The notes beneath the pieces are model-generated. The model worked only from the letters and a program-made list of their open reading frames with translations, did not search any database and was not told the origin of the DNA. Positions 20,313 through 25,350 of a DNA stretch of 64,000 nt are shown one piece after another. A program made the position numbers and the translations under genes. Where the stretch lies: positions 4,643-68,642 of the forward strand of contig JAJZJL010000002.1 of assembly GCA_021810145.1 (NCBI GenBank), in the 5' to 3' direction. Source of the DNA: Planctomycetota bacterium. GTDB taxonomy: Bacteria > Planctomycetota > Phycisphaerae > WQYP01. The first letter of the stretch is position 1. Each line of letters starts with the position of its first letter.

Positions 20313-20736
20313 TATGATTAAGCCACCAGCTCCCGGAGGTATTGCTTACGGTCCAAGTTGGCCGCACGCAATGAAAATACCGTTCGCCCTGAACATTCCA
20401 GGCATAGCACGGCAGGTCTCGGATTGCGACACGGTTTATGTGAAACATCCCGAGATCATGCATGAGGATATCTTTTCGTCCCCGCGTGGCCGCACGATGA
20501 CCAACGGCCTGTTGCGGCAGGGGCGAGCGGCAGCATCGCAATTAATCATCACGTTTCGCCAGCCGGCGGGGCTGAATATGCCCGCACCGTTGCAGGCCTG
20601 GATGATTACGAGAAAGCCTCAGGTGTTCCGCTTACCTGCCGCGATTATGCAGGATGGCGTGGCTAAGGCGGAAGCCCGCGCAAGCTTGATGTTGCCCAAG
20701 TGGAAAGACCTGGCAATACTGGACATACCGCAATGA
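20305..20736 (+). CDS. Hypothetical protein (144 aa) translationally coupled to the NifX-like gene.
   Basis: ATG at 20305 with GGAG 9 nt upstream. It overlaps the previous stop (ATGTCTGA). I recognised no family. The listed ORF 20161-20736 probably over-extends 5'. Confidence 0.35.
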   Translation: MSDMIKPPAPGGIAYGPSWPHAMKIPFALNIPGIARQVSDCDTVYVKHPEIMHEDIFSSPRGRTMTNGLLRQGRAAASQLIITFRQPAGLNMPAPLQAWMITRKPQVFRLPAAIMQDGVAKAEARASLMLPKWKDLAILDIPQ

Positions 20737-21086
20737 TATCGAACGTGGCCAATACGGTTTTGCTCGAAAACGCCGCACTTCAAGAGCTTTTTGCGGATCA
20801 GCGAGTTTCTGTGCTTTTGGCCAACATGGGTGCTCTGCTTAATGCAATTGATGATGCCGGAGAATGGCGGCGGATCAAACAATACCACACGCCGCGAGTT
20901 CCAGGTTGTTCCAGCAGGAATCAACTGCAACGAGTCGGTCTGGCTGTAACGCCGGGCCGGAAATTCTATTGGCAGGAACCACAACAAGTACTGAATTGCC
21001 CGCCGCATCGACCGTCGTTGCGACCTGGTGGTCTTCCCGCTTCCTCCGGAGAGCAGGACGATCAGACCACTGACCGGCAATCTTAA
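20733..21086 (+). CDS. Hypothetical protein. Low confidence; the C-terminal half is low-complexity.
   Basis: ATGA overlap with the preceding ORF. The N-terminal half looks helical and protein-like (MISNVANTVLLENAALQELFADQRVSVLLANMGALLNAIDDAGEWRRIK). The end is uncertain. Confidence 0.2.
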   Translation: MISNVANTVLLENAALQELFADQRVSVLLANMGALLNAIDDAGEWRRIKQYHTPRVPGCSSRNQLQRVGLAVTPGRKFYWQEPQQVLNCPPHRPSLRPGGLPASSGEQDDQTTDRQS

Positions 21087-21142
21087 GCCAATAGCAATAA
21101 GGGCCGTCAATACTTTTCACTGACTCCGGAAGAGAGGTTGCC

Positions 21143-21763
21143 ATGAAGCGAGTACTGGTCAATATTATCATCGACACCCTGGCAGCAATGGTGATGCTGG
21201 GATTGCTCGCCACCGGAATTATTTTGCGTTTTACGCTCCCTCCACGCAGCGGCCGCGTACGGACGCTGTGGAGTATGAGCCGGCACCAGTGGGGCGACCT
21301 GCACTTCTGGTTGGCACTGGCAGCTGTGGCAATTGTACTTCTACATCTGGCACTGCACTGGGATTGGGTAGTCTGCATCGTGCGCCGCTGGCTGGTCGGC
21401 GTTAATCAAGGTGGCCCCAGCAAGCGTTTACGAGTGTTTAGCGCCATAATTACGGCACTGATTGTCGCTTCGGCGATAACAAGTTTCTGGTGGATTTCCA
21501 CGCGGTCTGTAAAGCCCGCCGGTATGATTCAATCCGGGGGAAACGGATTTTCAAGCTCCGGATCCAACCTCCCCGGCAGCATGACTCTGGTTCGGACCGC
21601 CGCCACCTTGCATTGTTCCATCGCGGAGGTAAAGCATCGACTGGGATTGGCTTCCACCACTCCTGAAAGTGAACGGCTCGGCCAAATCGCCAGAGAACGG
21701 GGAGTAACCATGCGGGAAATTCGAAACCGCCTGGAATTGCAGAGCCGACACACCCAACCTTGA
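21143..21763 (+). CDS. DUF4405-like polytopic membrane protein with a ~90-aa cytoplasmic C-terminal extension.
   Basis: GAGAGG RBS. 3-4 TM helices with the conserved His/Trp pattern RHQWGDLHFWLALAAVAIVLLHLALHWDWVV reminiscent of DUF4405. The C-terminal part is HTH-like (LGQIARERGVTMREIRNRLE). Confidence 0.5.
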   Translation: MKRVLVNIIIDTLAAMVMLGLLATGIILRFTLPPRSGRVRTLWSMSRHQWGDLHFWLALAAVAIVLLHLALHWDWVVCIVRRWLVGVNQGGPSKRLRVFSAIITALIVASAITSFWWISTRSVKPAGMIQSGGNGFSSSGSNLPGSMTLVRTAATLHCSIAEVKHRLGLASTTPESERLGQIARERGVTMREIRNRLELQSRHTQP

Positions 21764-22258
21764 CGTGCACTGCAGTGAATCTCAATTTATTGCTGGAGGT
21801 GAAACAGGGACGCAATGACCTTTCCCGGCGACTGGCTCTGATTGTCCACTGCGTTCGCACCCCGCGGCGAGATACTCCGCGAACCCCGATGTCCCGCCAG
21901 CTTCACCTTCGCCGGCAATACGTTGCGTTCCATGCCCCTGCCCTTCGCCCGGCATGTGGAGCGACCGCAAAACGTCCGTGGTTATGGATTTAACATTAAC
22001 TGACGATCCGCAACAAAACCTGTGCGTGTGTCGCGCCGATAATCAGCCAATACGGCGCACTATTTCTGCCACCACAGGTGGAAGATACGCCCCGCCGCAT
22101 GATTCATAACGTGACATATACACACACATATGCCATGGCAGCGACGCTCTTTTCCTGCGATACCATTATTCCATCACAGATCCCCCCGGACGTTCATATC
22201 ATTGGCGTCCCCGTTCCGCGGTTTACAACCACATGATGCATGTCCCCTTTAAAATATC

Positions 22259-22300
22259 GTGGTACGGGCGATTCCGGCCCACTTTTTTTTATTTTTTTTG
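22259..22300 (+). terminator. Putative intrinsic terminator: bulged GC hairpin (GTGGtacGGGCgattccgGCCCAC) followed by a long T-tract.
   Basis: Hairpin plus ttttttttattttttttgcttttttttc, read directly. It may instead only be the UP-like T-rich region of the adjacent promoter. Confidence 0.35.
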
Positions 22301-22310
22301 CTTTTTTTTC

Positions 22311-22339
22311 TTGACATCGGCAGGTACAAAGTCTATGGT
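22311..22339 (+). promoter_or_regulatory. Strong sigma70-like promoter: TTGACA, 17-nt spacer, TATGGT, preceded by ~30 nt of T-tracts (UP-element-like).
   Basis: cTTGACAtcggcaggtacaaagtcTATGGTg. Unusually AT-rich for this genome. It would give a ~200-nt leader before the ORF at 22549. Confidence 0.45.
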
Positions 22340-22548
22340 GCCTTTTGTAGCTTGAGGATGGTCCTCTTGCGCGAAGACCGGTTCCAGCGGGCCGTAACAG
22401 TACAGACCGATGGAGAACGGGATCGAAGCGGGGCGTGTGCACGCGCCAGGCAACTCCAGCCTTTTCCTCTTCTCTCGTAATTTTTCACCACCACATGCTG
22501 ACGCGGCCAAGCGGAGCCAGAGTTTCCTTTTAAGGAAAGGGTAAAACC

Positions 22549-22881
22549 ATGCAAAGTCGAAGAAATCTTATTGGATGGGCTGCCGCCCTGCTCATGATGG
22601 CTGCCTTCTGGGCGATCACCCCGGTCGTTCATGCCCAACAGTGGCAAGGGGCGCAACAACCAGCCCAGGCGAAAAGCCAGACCTTTGTTGGCAGGGTTTT
22701 CAAGCTCCAGGGCGGAAAGTACGCCTTGATCACAGGCAAAACACCGCAGGGCCAGGTGGCTGGGCACTATCTGAAGAATCTCCACAGTCCCAAGAAATAT
22801 GTTGGCAAAACGGTGAAGGTCACTGGGACCTTGAACATGAAAACCAACACGATCCATGTAAAAAAAATCCGGACCGAATAA
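22549..22881 (+). CDS. Small secreted protein (110 aa) with a signal peptide, possibly OB-fold/BOF-like.
   Basis: AGGAAAGGG RBS. N-terminal signal peptide (LIGWAAALLMMAAFWAITPVVHA). Mature part is Q-rich then beta-rich (KYVGKTVKVTGTLNMKTNTIHVKKI). Bracketed by its own promoter and a perfect terminator. Confidence 0.55.
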   Translation: MQSRRNLIGWAAALLMMAAFWAITPVVHAQQWQGAQQPAQAKSQTFVGRVFKLQGGKYALITGKTPQGQVAGHYLKNLHSPKKYVGKTVKVTGTLNMKTNTIHVKKIRTE

Positions 22882-22914
22882 TCGGGGCCGGACCGTGATC
22901 GTATCTTGTGCAAT

Positions 22915-22953
22915 GACAGAGAGGCTGCGGCCGCAGCCTCTCTGTCAATTTTT
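22915..22953 (+). terminator. Rho-independent terminator.
   Basis: Perfect 16-bp inverted repeat GACAGAGAGGCTGCGG/CCGCAGCCTCTCTGTC followed by AATTTTT, 34 nt after the stop at 22881. Confidence 0.75.
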
Positions 22954-23120
22954 AGACGCGAACATACGCTGATGGCCGTGCACTGGTTGCCGTTGCCCTT
23001 ACTGTGAAGACCGCCCAGGGTGCGCGCATCGCCATCGCGGTCGGTAAGGCTTGCTCGGCATCAGTGTCGGTGCACCCATCTCGCCATTCCATTTGGACAG
23101 AGCCAAAGTTCCTGTGAATT

Positions 23121-23438
23121 TTGCGCAACGTTTCCGCCGAGCAATTTGAACTCTTGGCGATGTCCCATGCGGTCCGGCTCTTATTTGATCGGGCAGTATA
23201 TTTGAATTGTTACGGCACATTCCCCAGTCGCCTAATCAAGCTTTCGCCCACGTACCTTTCTACGATTCCACACGACCCATACACCGGAAAACCATTTGGC
23301 TACACTGCCAGCCCGAACGGCTGCACGGTTTACAGCCCCGGCAGATTTCCATCGCGATTGACAACTGGCATACACATTCTGCCCGGCCGCCCCATCCTGG
23401 CCTACCTGAGCTTGCCGGCGGGGAGATATCCCCTCTAA
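23121..23438 (+). pseudogene. Remnant of a type-II-secretion pseudopilin (GspG/PulG-like) gene lacking the N-terminal prepilin signal/TM helix.
   Basis: AVRLLFDRAVYLNCYGTFPSRL...IPHDPYTGKPFGYTASPNGCTVYSPG parallels the GspG C-terminal region (ALELYKLDNGRYPTTEQGL...DPWGNPYQYVSPG). I could not find a GFTLIELLVV-type N-terminus upstream in any frame. Confidence 0.35.
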
Positions 23439-23790
23439 GCATCCGCCGAGCGGGGGCCGCTTGTGCCACGAACCGCCGTTTTTTTCACCTCGCGTTTTTG
23501 GTAATCGGAGGCTGTTGTGTAGTGAAACACCAAGTTTCGCCGAGCACCGGCACATGAATGTGTCAACTGACATTGCTTTCAACCGAGTTGTGTTGGCCGG
23601 TGCATTTATTCATGGCCTGGCGGAATTCACCGTGGCGGAGTGCGATAGACTCGATGGCCCGTACTAGTGCAGATGGGGAGACGATAACGGGTGGCTGGTC
23701 AATATGTCAGATGGAATATTTCCGCCTTAGATTCAAAACTTCCGCCGGCGGCATTAGAATAGCTGGGAGTTTGCCGGCTGTACCAAGGAG

Positions 23791-25350
23791 TTGCCATTGA
23801 AATTGAATCCCCGTGATTTCGCCGTACCTTCCCTTGCTGATTTTAAAAAGCTCGCGGTGCCAGGAGCCATTATACCGGTATATGTTCCGGTTGCGGGGGA
23901 TTATCTCACGCCCGTATCCGCATATCAGCGCTTACGCGGCACCTCGGGGTATTCCTTTTTGCTGGAATCTGTGGTTGGGGGCGAACGCGTAGCGCGGTAT
24001 TCGTTCCTTGGTGCGGCTCCGACAATGGTGTTTGAAGCGCGTGATCAGGAAATGACAGTTTACAACCGCCCCGATCATGCCGATACCACGCGCAGCGTTT
24101 CGCAATCATCGGACCCGTTGGCCGAATTCGAAAAACTTCTTGGTCACGCCAAAGCGGTGCGATTGCCCGATCTCCCGGCGTTTACCGGCGGCGCAGTGGG
24201 CTACGCCGGGTATGATACCGTGCGATATCTGGAGCCGGAAAAGCTCGCATCCCCGCCGCGGGACACCCGTCATCTGCCGGATATTATTTTTGGCATTTAT
24301 GACGATCTGATCATCTTCGATCATGTTAAAAAGACTATTTTACTGGTAGCCAATATTCGGGTAAATGATTCTGACATCGACAAATTGTATGACGGCGCGG
24401 TGGATCGCATCGCCAGAATGATACAAACGCTCGGTACGCCGACGGCCATGCACCTGGACATGTTGAAACTCAATGTGGATGCAACACCGGCGTATGAAAG
24501 CAATTTTACCCGTGCGGGGTTTGAACATGCGGTGGATGCCGCCAAAGAATACATCAAGGCGGGAGATATATTCCAAGTTGTGTTATCGCAATGTCTCAAT
24601 ATGCGGACAAAAGCCGATCCCTTTGATATTTACCGTGCGTTGCGTGTGATTAATCCATCGCCGTTCATGTTCTATCTTAACAGCCCGGGTTGCACGCTCG
24701 TGGGATCCTCGCCGGAAATCATGTGCCGCGTTGAAGACGGCATAATTACCAACCGCCCGCTGGCGGGAACACGCCGGCGCGGCAAAACCCCGGAGGAGGA
24801 TTTCGCATTGGAAGCGGAACTGCTGGCTGATCCGAAGGAACGCGCCGAGCATGTGATGCTGGTGGATTTGGGCCGCAATGATGTGGGACGGGTATCCGTG
24901 CCGGGATCGGTAAAAATCAGCGATGCGATGACCGTGGAGCGTTACAGCCATGTGATGCACATAACCACCAATGTCACCGGCAAACTGGCGGAAGGCAAAA
25001 CCTGCTTTGATGCTTTGCGCAACACGCTGCCGGTGGGGACGGTCAGCGGGGCGCCAAAAATCCGAGCCATGCAGATTATCGATGAACTTGAGCCAACACG
25101 GCGCGGCCCCTATGCCGGGGCGGTAGGGTATATTGATTACGCCAAAAACATGGATACGTGCATCGCATTGCGCACCATGGTCATTACGCCGGAAGCCGAC
25201 AATTCCGGCGCACCTGCACACCGCGTATATGTGCAGGCCGGAGCCGGCCTGGTAGCTGATTCGGTGCCCGCCAGCGAATATCAGGAATCTTTAAATAAAG
25301 CCGCGGCACTGCTTAAAGCGGTGGCGATGGCTGAGGCGGGTTTGACTTAA
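23791..25350 (+). CDS. trpE: Anthranilate synthase component I (chorismate-binding enzyme).
   Basis: LESVVGGERVARYSFLGAAP, GAVGYAGYD, PFMFYL, LAGTRRRG, GGAVGYIDY motifs of TrpE. TTG-type start region with an AAGGAG RBS. No trpG follows. Confidence 0.9.
   Translation: MPLKLNPRDFAVPSLADFKKLAVPGAIIPVYVPVAGDYLTPVSAYQRLRGTSGYSFLLESVVGGERVARYSFLGAAPTMVFEARDQEMTVYNRPDHADTTRSVSQSSDPLAEFEKLLGHAKAVRLPDLPAFTGGAVGYAGYDTVRYLEPEKLASPPRDTRHLPDIIFGIYDDLIIFDHVKKTILLVANIRVNDSDIDKLYDGAVDRIARMIQTLGTPTAMHLDMLKLNVDATPAYESNFTRAGFEHAVDAAKEYIKAGDIFQVVLSQCLNMRTKADPFDIYRALRVINPSPFMFYLNSPGCTLVGSSPEIMCRVEDGIITNRPLAGTRRRGKTPEEDFALEAELLADPKERAEHVMLVDLGRNDVGRVSVPGSVKISDAMTVERYSHVMHITTNVTGKLAEGKTCFDALRNTLPVGTVSGAPKIRAMQIIDELEPTRRGPYAGAVGYIDYAKNMDTCIALRTMVITPEADNSGAPAHRVYVQAGAGLVADSVPASEYQESLNKAAALLKAVAMAEAGLT

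Follow-up and report, generated by a model that had tools for sequence, protein, structure and literature searches.

Sigma-70 promoters may be preceded by an A/T-rich UP element or by phased A-tract curvature, as in rrnB P1 of Escherichia coli. Exported proteins with an oligonucleotide/oligosaccharide-binding (OB) fold include the BOF-family protein YgiW (PDB 1nnx) and the potempins of Tannerella forsythia, which are protease inhibitors (PDB 8b2n and 8ehb). These systems, together with Rho-independent terminators and with extracytoplasmic function (ECF) sigma factors carrying long C-terminal extensions, are the described counterparts to which we compare the locus reported here. The locus spans positions 21764-23790 (hereafter the interval) of a 64,000-nucleotide stretch of DNA (the window), whose source is an uncultured, Phycisphaerae-like planctomycete, and it holds one small gene of the DUF5818 family. 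We consider, with a probability of about three in four, that the whole interval is ordinary genome architecture, composed of a neutral spacer, a one-gene unit, and a strain-variable scar zone upstream of trpE. Three unrelated parts would then lie side by side. The interval is unusual mainly in that two long gaps free of open reading frames (ORFs) flank one small gene; gaps of 500-630 nt without an ORF number about six in the 64-kb window.

The likeness to the described systems varies from part to part. The candidate promoter upstream of the DUF5818 gene resembles the rrnB P1 type in having a perfect -35 hexamer, a 17-nt spacer, a -10 hexamer matching at 4/6 positions, and 27 nt of T tracts upstream. 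The terminator shares with Rho-independent terminators a GC-rich perfect 15-bp stem, a 4-nt loop, and a T run, located 33 nt past the stop codon, and differs from them in that the run has just 5 T and the stem is unusually long. The DUF5818 protein is like YgiW and the potempins at the level of fold only: the sequences are 16-19% identical, and in Pfam the protein matches none of those families. This similarity does not establish its function. Compared with DUF5818 relatives outside the species, the nearest of which are just 55-58% identical, the gene lies in another context and those relatives have a short leader. A literature search found no published work on the DUF5818 family. As for ECF sigma factors with long C-terminal extensions, an intact allele in a sister strain is alike, while all that is left of the gene in the window is its last ~105 codons.

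Overview of the interval

Copies of the locus, identical or 97-100% identical, are present in several metagenome assemblies and metagenome-assembled genomes (MAGs), e.g. GCA_027428675.1. Variable sites were counted in collinear blocks of 12 strains over about ten segments, and the counts given below are from this census unless another set is named. In a second comparison, 15 sequences of the locus were aligned. The strains behind the non-coding comparisons have a mutual identity of 97-100%. The upstream genes served as the neutral yardstick, with 0.69, 0.34, and 3.0% of sites varying at codon positions 1, 2, and 3, respectively. Codon-usage scoring was dropped as a test of reading frame because the codon bias of this genome is too weak to separate frames.

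All features listed in the original prediction for this DNA were found by ORF, promoter, and terminator scans at the coordinates it gave, and it is their interpretation that changes in part. A scan for tRNA and tmRNA yielded no genes. The Rfam scan that the prediction had proposed as a check, performed with the covariance models of Rfam 15 over 20500-25000 at E <= 10, returned no family and left both the spacer and the leader empty. Its best scores, 24 bits against a cut-off of 50, are located on the terminator palindrome and were judged to be noise.

The DUF5818 gene and its predicted OB-fold product

The one-gene unit is composed of the following features.

22283-22309, + strand: three T8 tracts with a period of 9-10 nt, abutting the -35 hexamer
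22311-22339, + strand: candidate sigma-70-type promoter TTGACA-17-TATGGT, top match of the local scan (10/12)
22347-22548, + strand: putative 5' untranslated leader of ~200 nt
22549-22881, + strand: DUF5818 gene, 110 aa (ORF scan, homology, codon-position pattern, structure model)
22914-22947, + strand: intrinsic terminator (perfect palindrome; 15-bp stem, 4-nt loop), then ATTTTT

Sequence comparison indicates that 22549-22881 is a genuine DUF5818 gene, kept by purifying selection. Its 110-aa product has 12 homologues with E-values of 2e-64 to 2e-9, and a precomputed PF19135 label is found on homologues. To proteins so labelled, the phmmer E-values are 1e-26 to 2e-9; the alignment has 17 invariant columns, and 13 of 13 aligned proteins, the window protein included, match PF19135 (E <= 0.01, best 2e-12). 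Among the strains, 8/333 sites of the gene vary, of which one, one, and six fall on codon positions 1, 2, and 3, respectively. A translated gene is expected to vary in this way.

In the protein, a signal peptide is followed by a linker rich in Q and P and then by a ~65-aa OB-fold domain. The signal peptide reads MQSRRN / LIGWAAALLMMAAFWAITPVV / HA-Q, with a predicted cleavage after VHA at residue 29; Ala29 and Gln30 are conserved across the DUF5818 homologues. By sequence, it has the basic N-terminal region, the hydrophobic core, and the A-x-A-type cleavage site of Sec-type signals. Its twin arginine is not a conserved feature, and TAT_signal was matched with an E-value of 0.16. The 13 aligned proteins have in common the signal peptide, the Q-rich linker, and a conserved family core, GK.VKVTG...N.IHV. 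The structure model has a pLDDT (predicted local distance difference test) of ~90, with residues 1-38 at low confidence, and its elements follow the order beta1-3/helix/beta4-5. Specifically, five predicted strands form a closed beta barrel with the helix between strands 3 and 4, which is the arrangement of the OB fold. The DUF5818 protein is hence confidently predicted to fold as a small OB barrel, and it would be exported via its cleavable signal peptide. By analogy to other exported OB-fold proteins, its most likely role is that of a periplasmic or secreted binding module. The original prediction of a 110-aa secreted, possibly OB-fold ORF thus holds, the gene by its homologues and the fold by the predicted structure.

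The surroundings of DUF5818 genes elsewhere differ. Three loci, L018 (1053-1505), L044 (199-570), and L047 (740-1174), have a conserved divergent gene of 123-150 aa with no Pfam record at a distance of ~250-310 nt, and in L011 the upstream neighbour of the DUF5818 gene encodes a 613-aa Trans_reg_C/TPR regulator.

Terminator of the one-gene unit

Between the two arms of the palindrome, 22914-22930 and 22931-22947, complementarity is complete (100%). Folding at -30.4 kcal/mol with a z-score of -6.0, the hairpin is followed by a T5 run. It therefore has what defines an intrinsic terminator, i.e. a stable GC-rich hairpin with an adjoining U tract downstream of a gene. In strain L007, a compensatory double substitution at 22918/22943 changes an A-U pair to G-C and keeps the stem. 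The z-score and the compensatory pair support a strong intrinsic terminator at 22914-22947, in line with the perfect-stem terminator originally proposed to close the gene. The transcript of the one-gene unit presumably ends here, and this very stable element would close the DUF5818 unit.

Candidate promoter

No other 40-nt neighbourhood of the 64 kb is as AT-rich as that at 22268-22330 (GC content 0.22, compared with 0.55 overall), which contains 3/7 of the homopolymer runs of >= 8 A/T in the window. This set of T tracts has no second example in the window. The length of the T tracts varies among strains, with seven of them having 1-2 extra T at 22291 in the middle tract. This change in length falls upstream of the -35 hexamer and leaves the promoter spacer unaffected. 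The tracts may act as a UP-element-like sequence or as curved DNA. Next to them, the -35 and -10 hexamers are separated by 17 nt, within the 16-18 nt of sigma-70 promoters, and the surrounding candidate promoter region varies normally (4/88 sites). The hexamer pair appears to carry weight by its position beside the T tracts alone, and we infer promoter activity at 22311-22339 from that arrangement. The phased T tracts and the sigma-70-like promoter would drive a one-gene transcript with a leader of ~200 nt. Of the unusual strong promoter claimed originally, what stands is that a module of T tracts and promoter is unusual in this genome; the hexamer match itself is no better than chance.

The same sequence can be read differently, with the T tracts being mainly the U tail of the upstream operon's terminator, TTGACA-17-TATGGT a chance match, and the true DUF5818 promoter lying nearer the gene without a long leader. 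A hairpin does precede the T tracts, matches of 10/12 occur at chance frequency, and promoter rules and consensus in Planctomycetota are poorly known. Moreover, six homologous loci of other lineages have a conserved promoter block 45-70 nt before the start codon and no comparable leader. Against it, the hairpin is weak (z = -1.5), three phased T8 runs exceed what a terminator tail needs, and these runs adjoin a perfect -35 hexamer, at the ideal spacing of 17 nt. Furthermore, no good proximal promoter was seen upstream of the window gene, where CTGACG, with no -10 hexamer, aligns to the promoter block of the homologues. We regard such a proximal promoter as unlikely, and favour the candidate at 22311-22339.

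Two further observations concern this part. The block of the homologous loci is TTGAC(A/C)-N16-17-TAGCCT-like in L011, L014, L018, L044, L047, and L050, and is probably a promoter. An imperfect inverted repeat, 22271-22291 / 22859-22879, matches at 16/21 nt with a T8/A8 centre; its arms enclose the promoter together with the DUF5818 coding sequence, probably by chance.

Leader

Only 1/202 sites of the leader vary in the 12 strains, and two among the 15 aligned sequences, compared with the neutral 3.0%; its flanks, the promoter region and the coding sequence, vary normally. A small hairpin, UUUCCU/AGGAAA, is predicted to overlap the ribosome-binding site (22533-22542) in part; the unpaired probability of that site is 0.03-0.3. 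One explanation is a lineage-specific cis-regulatory RNA that could control DUF5818 translation by masking the ribosome-binding site. Other evidence argues against it. The leader lacks any Rfam match even at E <= 10; its overall fold is not exceptional (z = -1.67), and the hairpin segment has a z-score of 0.0. Nearby intergenic regions are similarly invariant, with 0/189 and 1/295 variable sites, and covariation is not visible at 97-100% identity. At the six homologous loci the alignments show the conserved proximal promoter instead, and a leader RNA common to DUF5818 loci was rejected.

We therefore hold a regulatory leader of this kind to be improbable, if worth bearing in mind. Less probable again is its more specific form, in which the leader would be an undescribed cis-regulatory RNA confined to this planctomycete lineage, kept by selection and gating translation through the ribosome-binding-site hairpin. 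The cis-regulatory leader originally proposed thus retains the scarcity of variable sites in its favour, and finds no support in RNA families, in folding, or at homologous loci.

The spacer downstream of the DUF4405 gene

The left part of the interval, and the gene that bounds it, contain three features.

21143-21763, + strand: gene of a DUF4405 membrane protein (Pfam PF14358, E = 3e-15; gene calls in sister strains)
21764-22258, no strand: non-coding spacer (neutral variation, no RNA or protein match)
22259-22282, + strand: weak interrupted hairpin of 4 + 3 bp, -11.5 kcal/mol, which failed the terminator scan

The + strand order is HoxH, PFOR, DHODH, HypA, HypB, NifX-like, two small genes, DUF4405, the interval, trpE, aspS, and pyk. 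The last gene of the hox/PFOR/hyp cluster, DUF4405, bounds the interval on the left. Outside the species, the nearest DUF4405 homologues are 56-61% identical and come from MAGs of Phycisphaerales and Tepidisphaerales and from metagenome contigs.

Variation among the strains indicates that the spacer is unconstrained DNA drifting at the neutral rate. It has 16/495 variable sites (3.2%), compared with 3.0% at third codon positions, and strains also differ in it by frameshifting indels, namely 1-3 nt within a run of C at 22181 and a single deleted nucleotide at 22220. As no terminator follows the DUF4405 stop codon, the spacer is probably a 3' region of the upstream operon reached by putative read-through, and the hairpin at 22259-22282 may be the weak terminator of that operon. 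Following the hydrogenase/PFOR/hyp/DUF4405 cluster, the spacer would have no function of its own and would probably be transcribed by read-through alone, up to the weak hairpin and the long T run.

The original prediction had placed an unannotated small RNA in these ~500 nt, ending at the hairpin and T tract. The region is indeed poor in ORFs, ends in a hairpin followed by T8, and is probably on a transcript. Nevertheless, a variable-site density equal to that of third codon positions, the indels between strains, the empty Rfam scan, and the non-significant folding z-scores (-1.9 for one strand, -1.8 for the other) all stand against an RNA gene. In addition, its 5' side has no promoter-like site except a 9/12 match at 22173, and its sequence is unique to the species, with no repeat or similarity found elsewhere. 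We judge a small RNA here very unlikely, and retain the neutral spacer.

Protein-coding candidates in the spacer were also examined. A 77-aa ORF at 21760-21993 has 7/8 of its substitutions at codon positions 1 or 2. A search against 1.84 billion representative proteins found no true homologue of it; its two database matches, a tandem-repeat translation and a TPR protein, are repeat artefacts. A tblastx match of the spacer to L028 is likewise spurious: it falls on the antisense strand of an ABC permease gene. Downstream of their DUF4405 gene, relatives have a conserved 78-aa ORF and then a TatD-like gene. Searches for remnants of these two genes in the spacer gave tblastn noise only (E > 0.05) and no match to an nhmmer DNA profile. 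About 50 nt past the DUF4405 stop resemble the ribosome-binding region of the relatives, a length too short for proof. We also looked in the spacer for a minus-strand remnant of the small gene that is divergent from the DUF5818 gene in acidobacteria-like loci, and it is absent.

The relatives' conserved ORF of 77-78 aa, MMNRNxVLExYYLDCRCMLLELAA...DRAxRILQLxSDPVG, has no Pfam match and is located at 6630-6866 in L028, 4344-4580 in L033, 4630-4866 in L035, 1410-1646 in L036, and 4630-4863 in L038. L029 has a degraded copy.

The strain-variable zone upstream of trpE

The right part of the interval contains the following features.

22961-23091, no strand: hypervariable flank in two haplotypes, with a 10-bp indel between them, beside a deletion junction
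23121-23438, + strand: 3' remnant of an ECF sigma-factor fusion gene, a 105-aa ORF (alignment to the intact L020 allele)
23644-23733, no strand: island replacement site, with a 4.8-kb insert in L023 and L025
23732-23760, + strand: trpE promoter-like site TTCAAA-17-TAGAAT (promoter scan)
23785-23790, + strand: trpE ribosome-binding site AAGGAG (sequence; trpE starts at 23797)

The zone between the DUF5818 terminator and trpE is strain-variable and holds only scars here, among them the last ~105 codons of an ECF sigma-factor gene. The origin of this remnant is seen in the sister strain L020, which has 2214 bp in place of window positions 23092-23211. These complete a 735-aa gene at L020 10768-12975, whose product has Sigma70_r2/r4 domains with a Sigma70_ECF match, followed by a hydrophobic segment and an extension of ~470 aa. 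The window ORF aligns with the last ~105 codons of the L020 gene (residues ~631-735), the final 227 nt being identical and the first ~90 nt diverged, and by tblastn residues 648-735 of the L020 protein align to the window at 90% identity. In the window copy, the start codon, the sigma domains, and the membrane segment are deleted; Sigma-70 regions 2 and 4, present in L020, are thus lacking, and the fragment does not belong to the ECF factors itself. The only start codon in 23121-23438 is a TTG without a ribosome-binding site, gene callers skip the ORF in every strain, and 1.8% of its sites vary, compared with a neutral value of 1.4%. The alignment to L020 identifies 23121-23438 as a pseudogene, the tail of a membrane-anchored 735-aa ECF sigma-factor gene that is intact in one sister strain.

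This stretch had been described originally as a decapitated GspG-like pseudopilin. A decapitated remnant it is, though the tail of an ECF sigma fusion rather than of a pseudopilin. The C-terminal half contains a motif, G-x-F-P ... P-x-D-P-Y-x-G-x-P-F-x-Y, which we take to recall type II secretion pseudopilins, and by eye a pseudopilin-like motif is also seen in the last ~50 residues of the L020 protein. Together with a frame that stays open for 105 codons, the motif would be the case for a functional small gene encoding a pseudopilin-like protein. The fragment lacks both the prepilin cleavage/methylation motif and the hydrophobic helix, and the intact protein starts with Sigma70_r2/r4. No Pfam match at E <= 1 and no NCBIfam match were found for the remnant; the intact L020 protein matches sigma-factor families only in Pfam at E <= 0.1, with no T2SSG (PF08334). 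A PDB search with the L020 extension, made at the sequence level only, listed no pseudopilin (GspG) chain and no relative among its matches. One search for homologues of the last 200 aa of the L020 protein found none, and it also missed the protein itself. With the alignment to a truncated sigma-factor gene, the lone TTG start, the lack of any gene call, and the neutral density of variable sites, a functional pseudopilin-like gene is extremely unlikely, and the pseudogene is preferred.

The remaining features lie on both sides of the remnant. In the flank at 22961-23078, 14/118 sites vary and the two haplotypes differ by ~12%, whereas the surrounding DNA differs by 1-3%; the identity to L020 is 82.5%. 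The two-haplotype block suggests recombination with a more distant lineage near the deletion junction. About 200 bp further on from the remnant, other strains carry a restriction-modification-like island. Lying immediately before trpE and in the opposite orientation, this 4.8-kb island (L023 11087-15909, L025 1364-6186) has genes for a C5 cytosine methylase, for a HATPase_c_3 protein of 641 aa that matches models of type II restriction enzymes weakly, and for a PP_RS20740-family protein of 391 aa. The island is probably a unit for restriction-modification or a related kind of defence. Its right junction is at the -35 of the trpE promoter-like site. The island cuts a 37-aa ORF marked by gene callers at 23554-23667, which shows that this ORF is dispensable.

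Discussion

Several points weigh against reading the interval as ordinary architecture. Relatives at intermediate distance were looked for and none was found, and the non-coding comparison comes wholly from strains that are 97-100% identical. The leader has fewer variable sites than the neutral rate predicts, with a Poisson p of ~0.016 before correction for the ~10 segments, and it may have a function outside the account favoured here. The hexamers of the candidate promoter are at chance level, the window having 8 matches of >= 10/12 where 6.3 +/- 2.3 are expected. Finally, the window protein itself scores 23 bits against PF19135 (E = 5.6e-5), below the gathering cut-off of 27 bits.

The interval matters little past its correct annotation. 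Its leader, poor in variable sites, is the sole remaining lead, and a weak one. A pseudogene that could be mistaken for a pilin fragment is identified, and the uncharacterised family DUF5818 gains a confident OB-fold prediction. Neutral decay, together with gene gain and loss between strains, can account for a patch of a compact genome that is poor in genes, and a hidden RNA gene is not needed.

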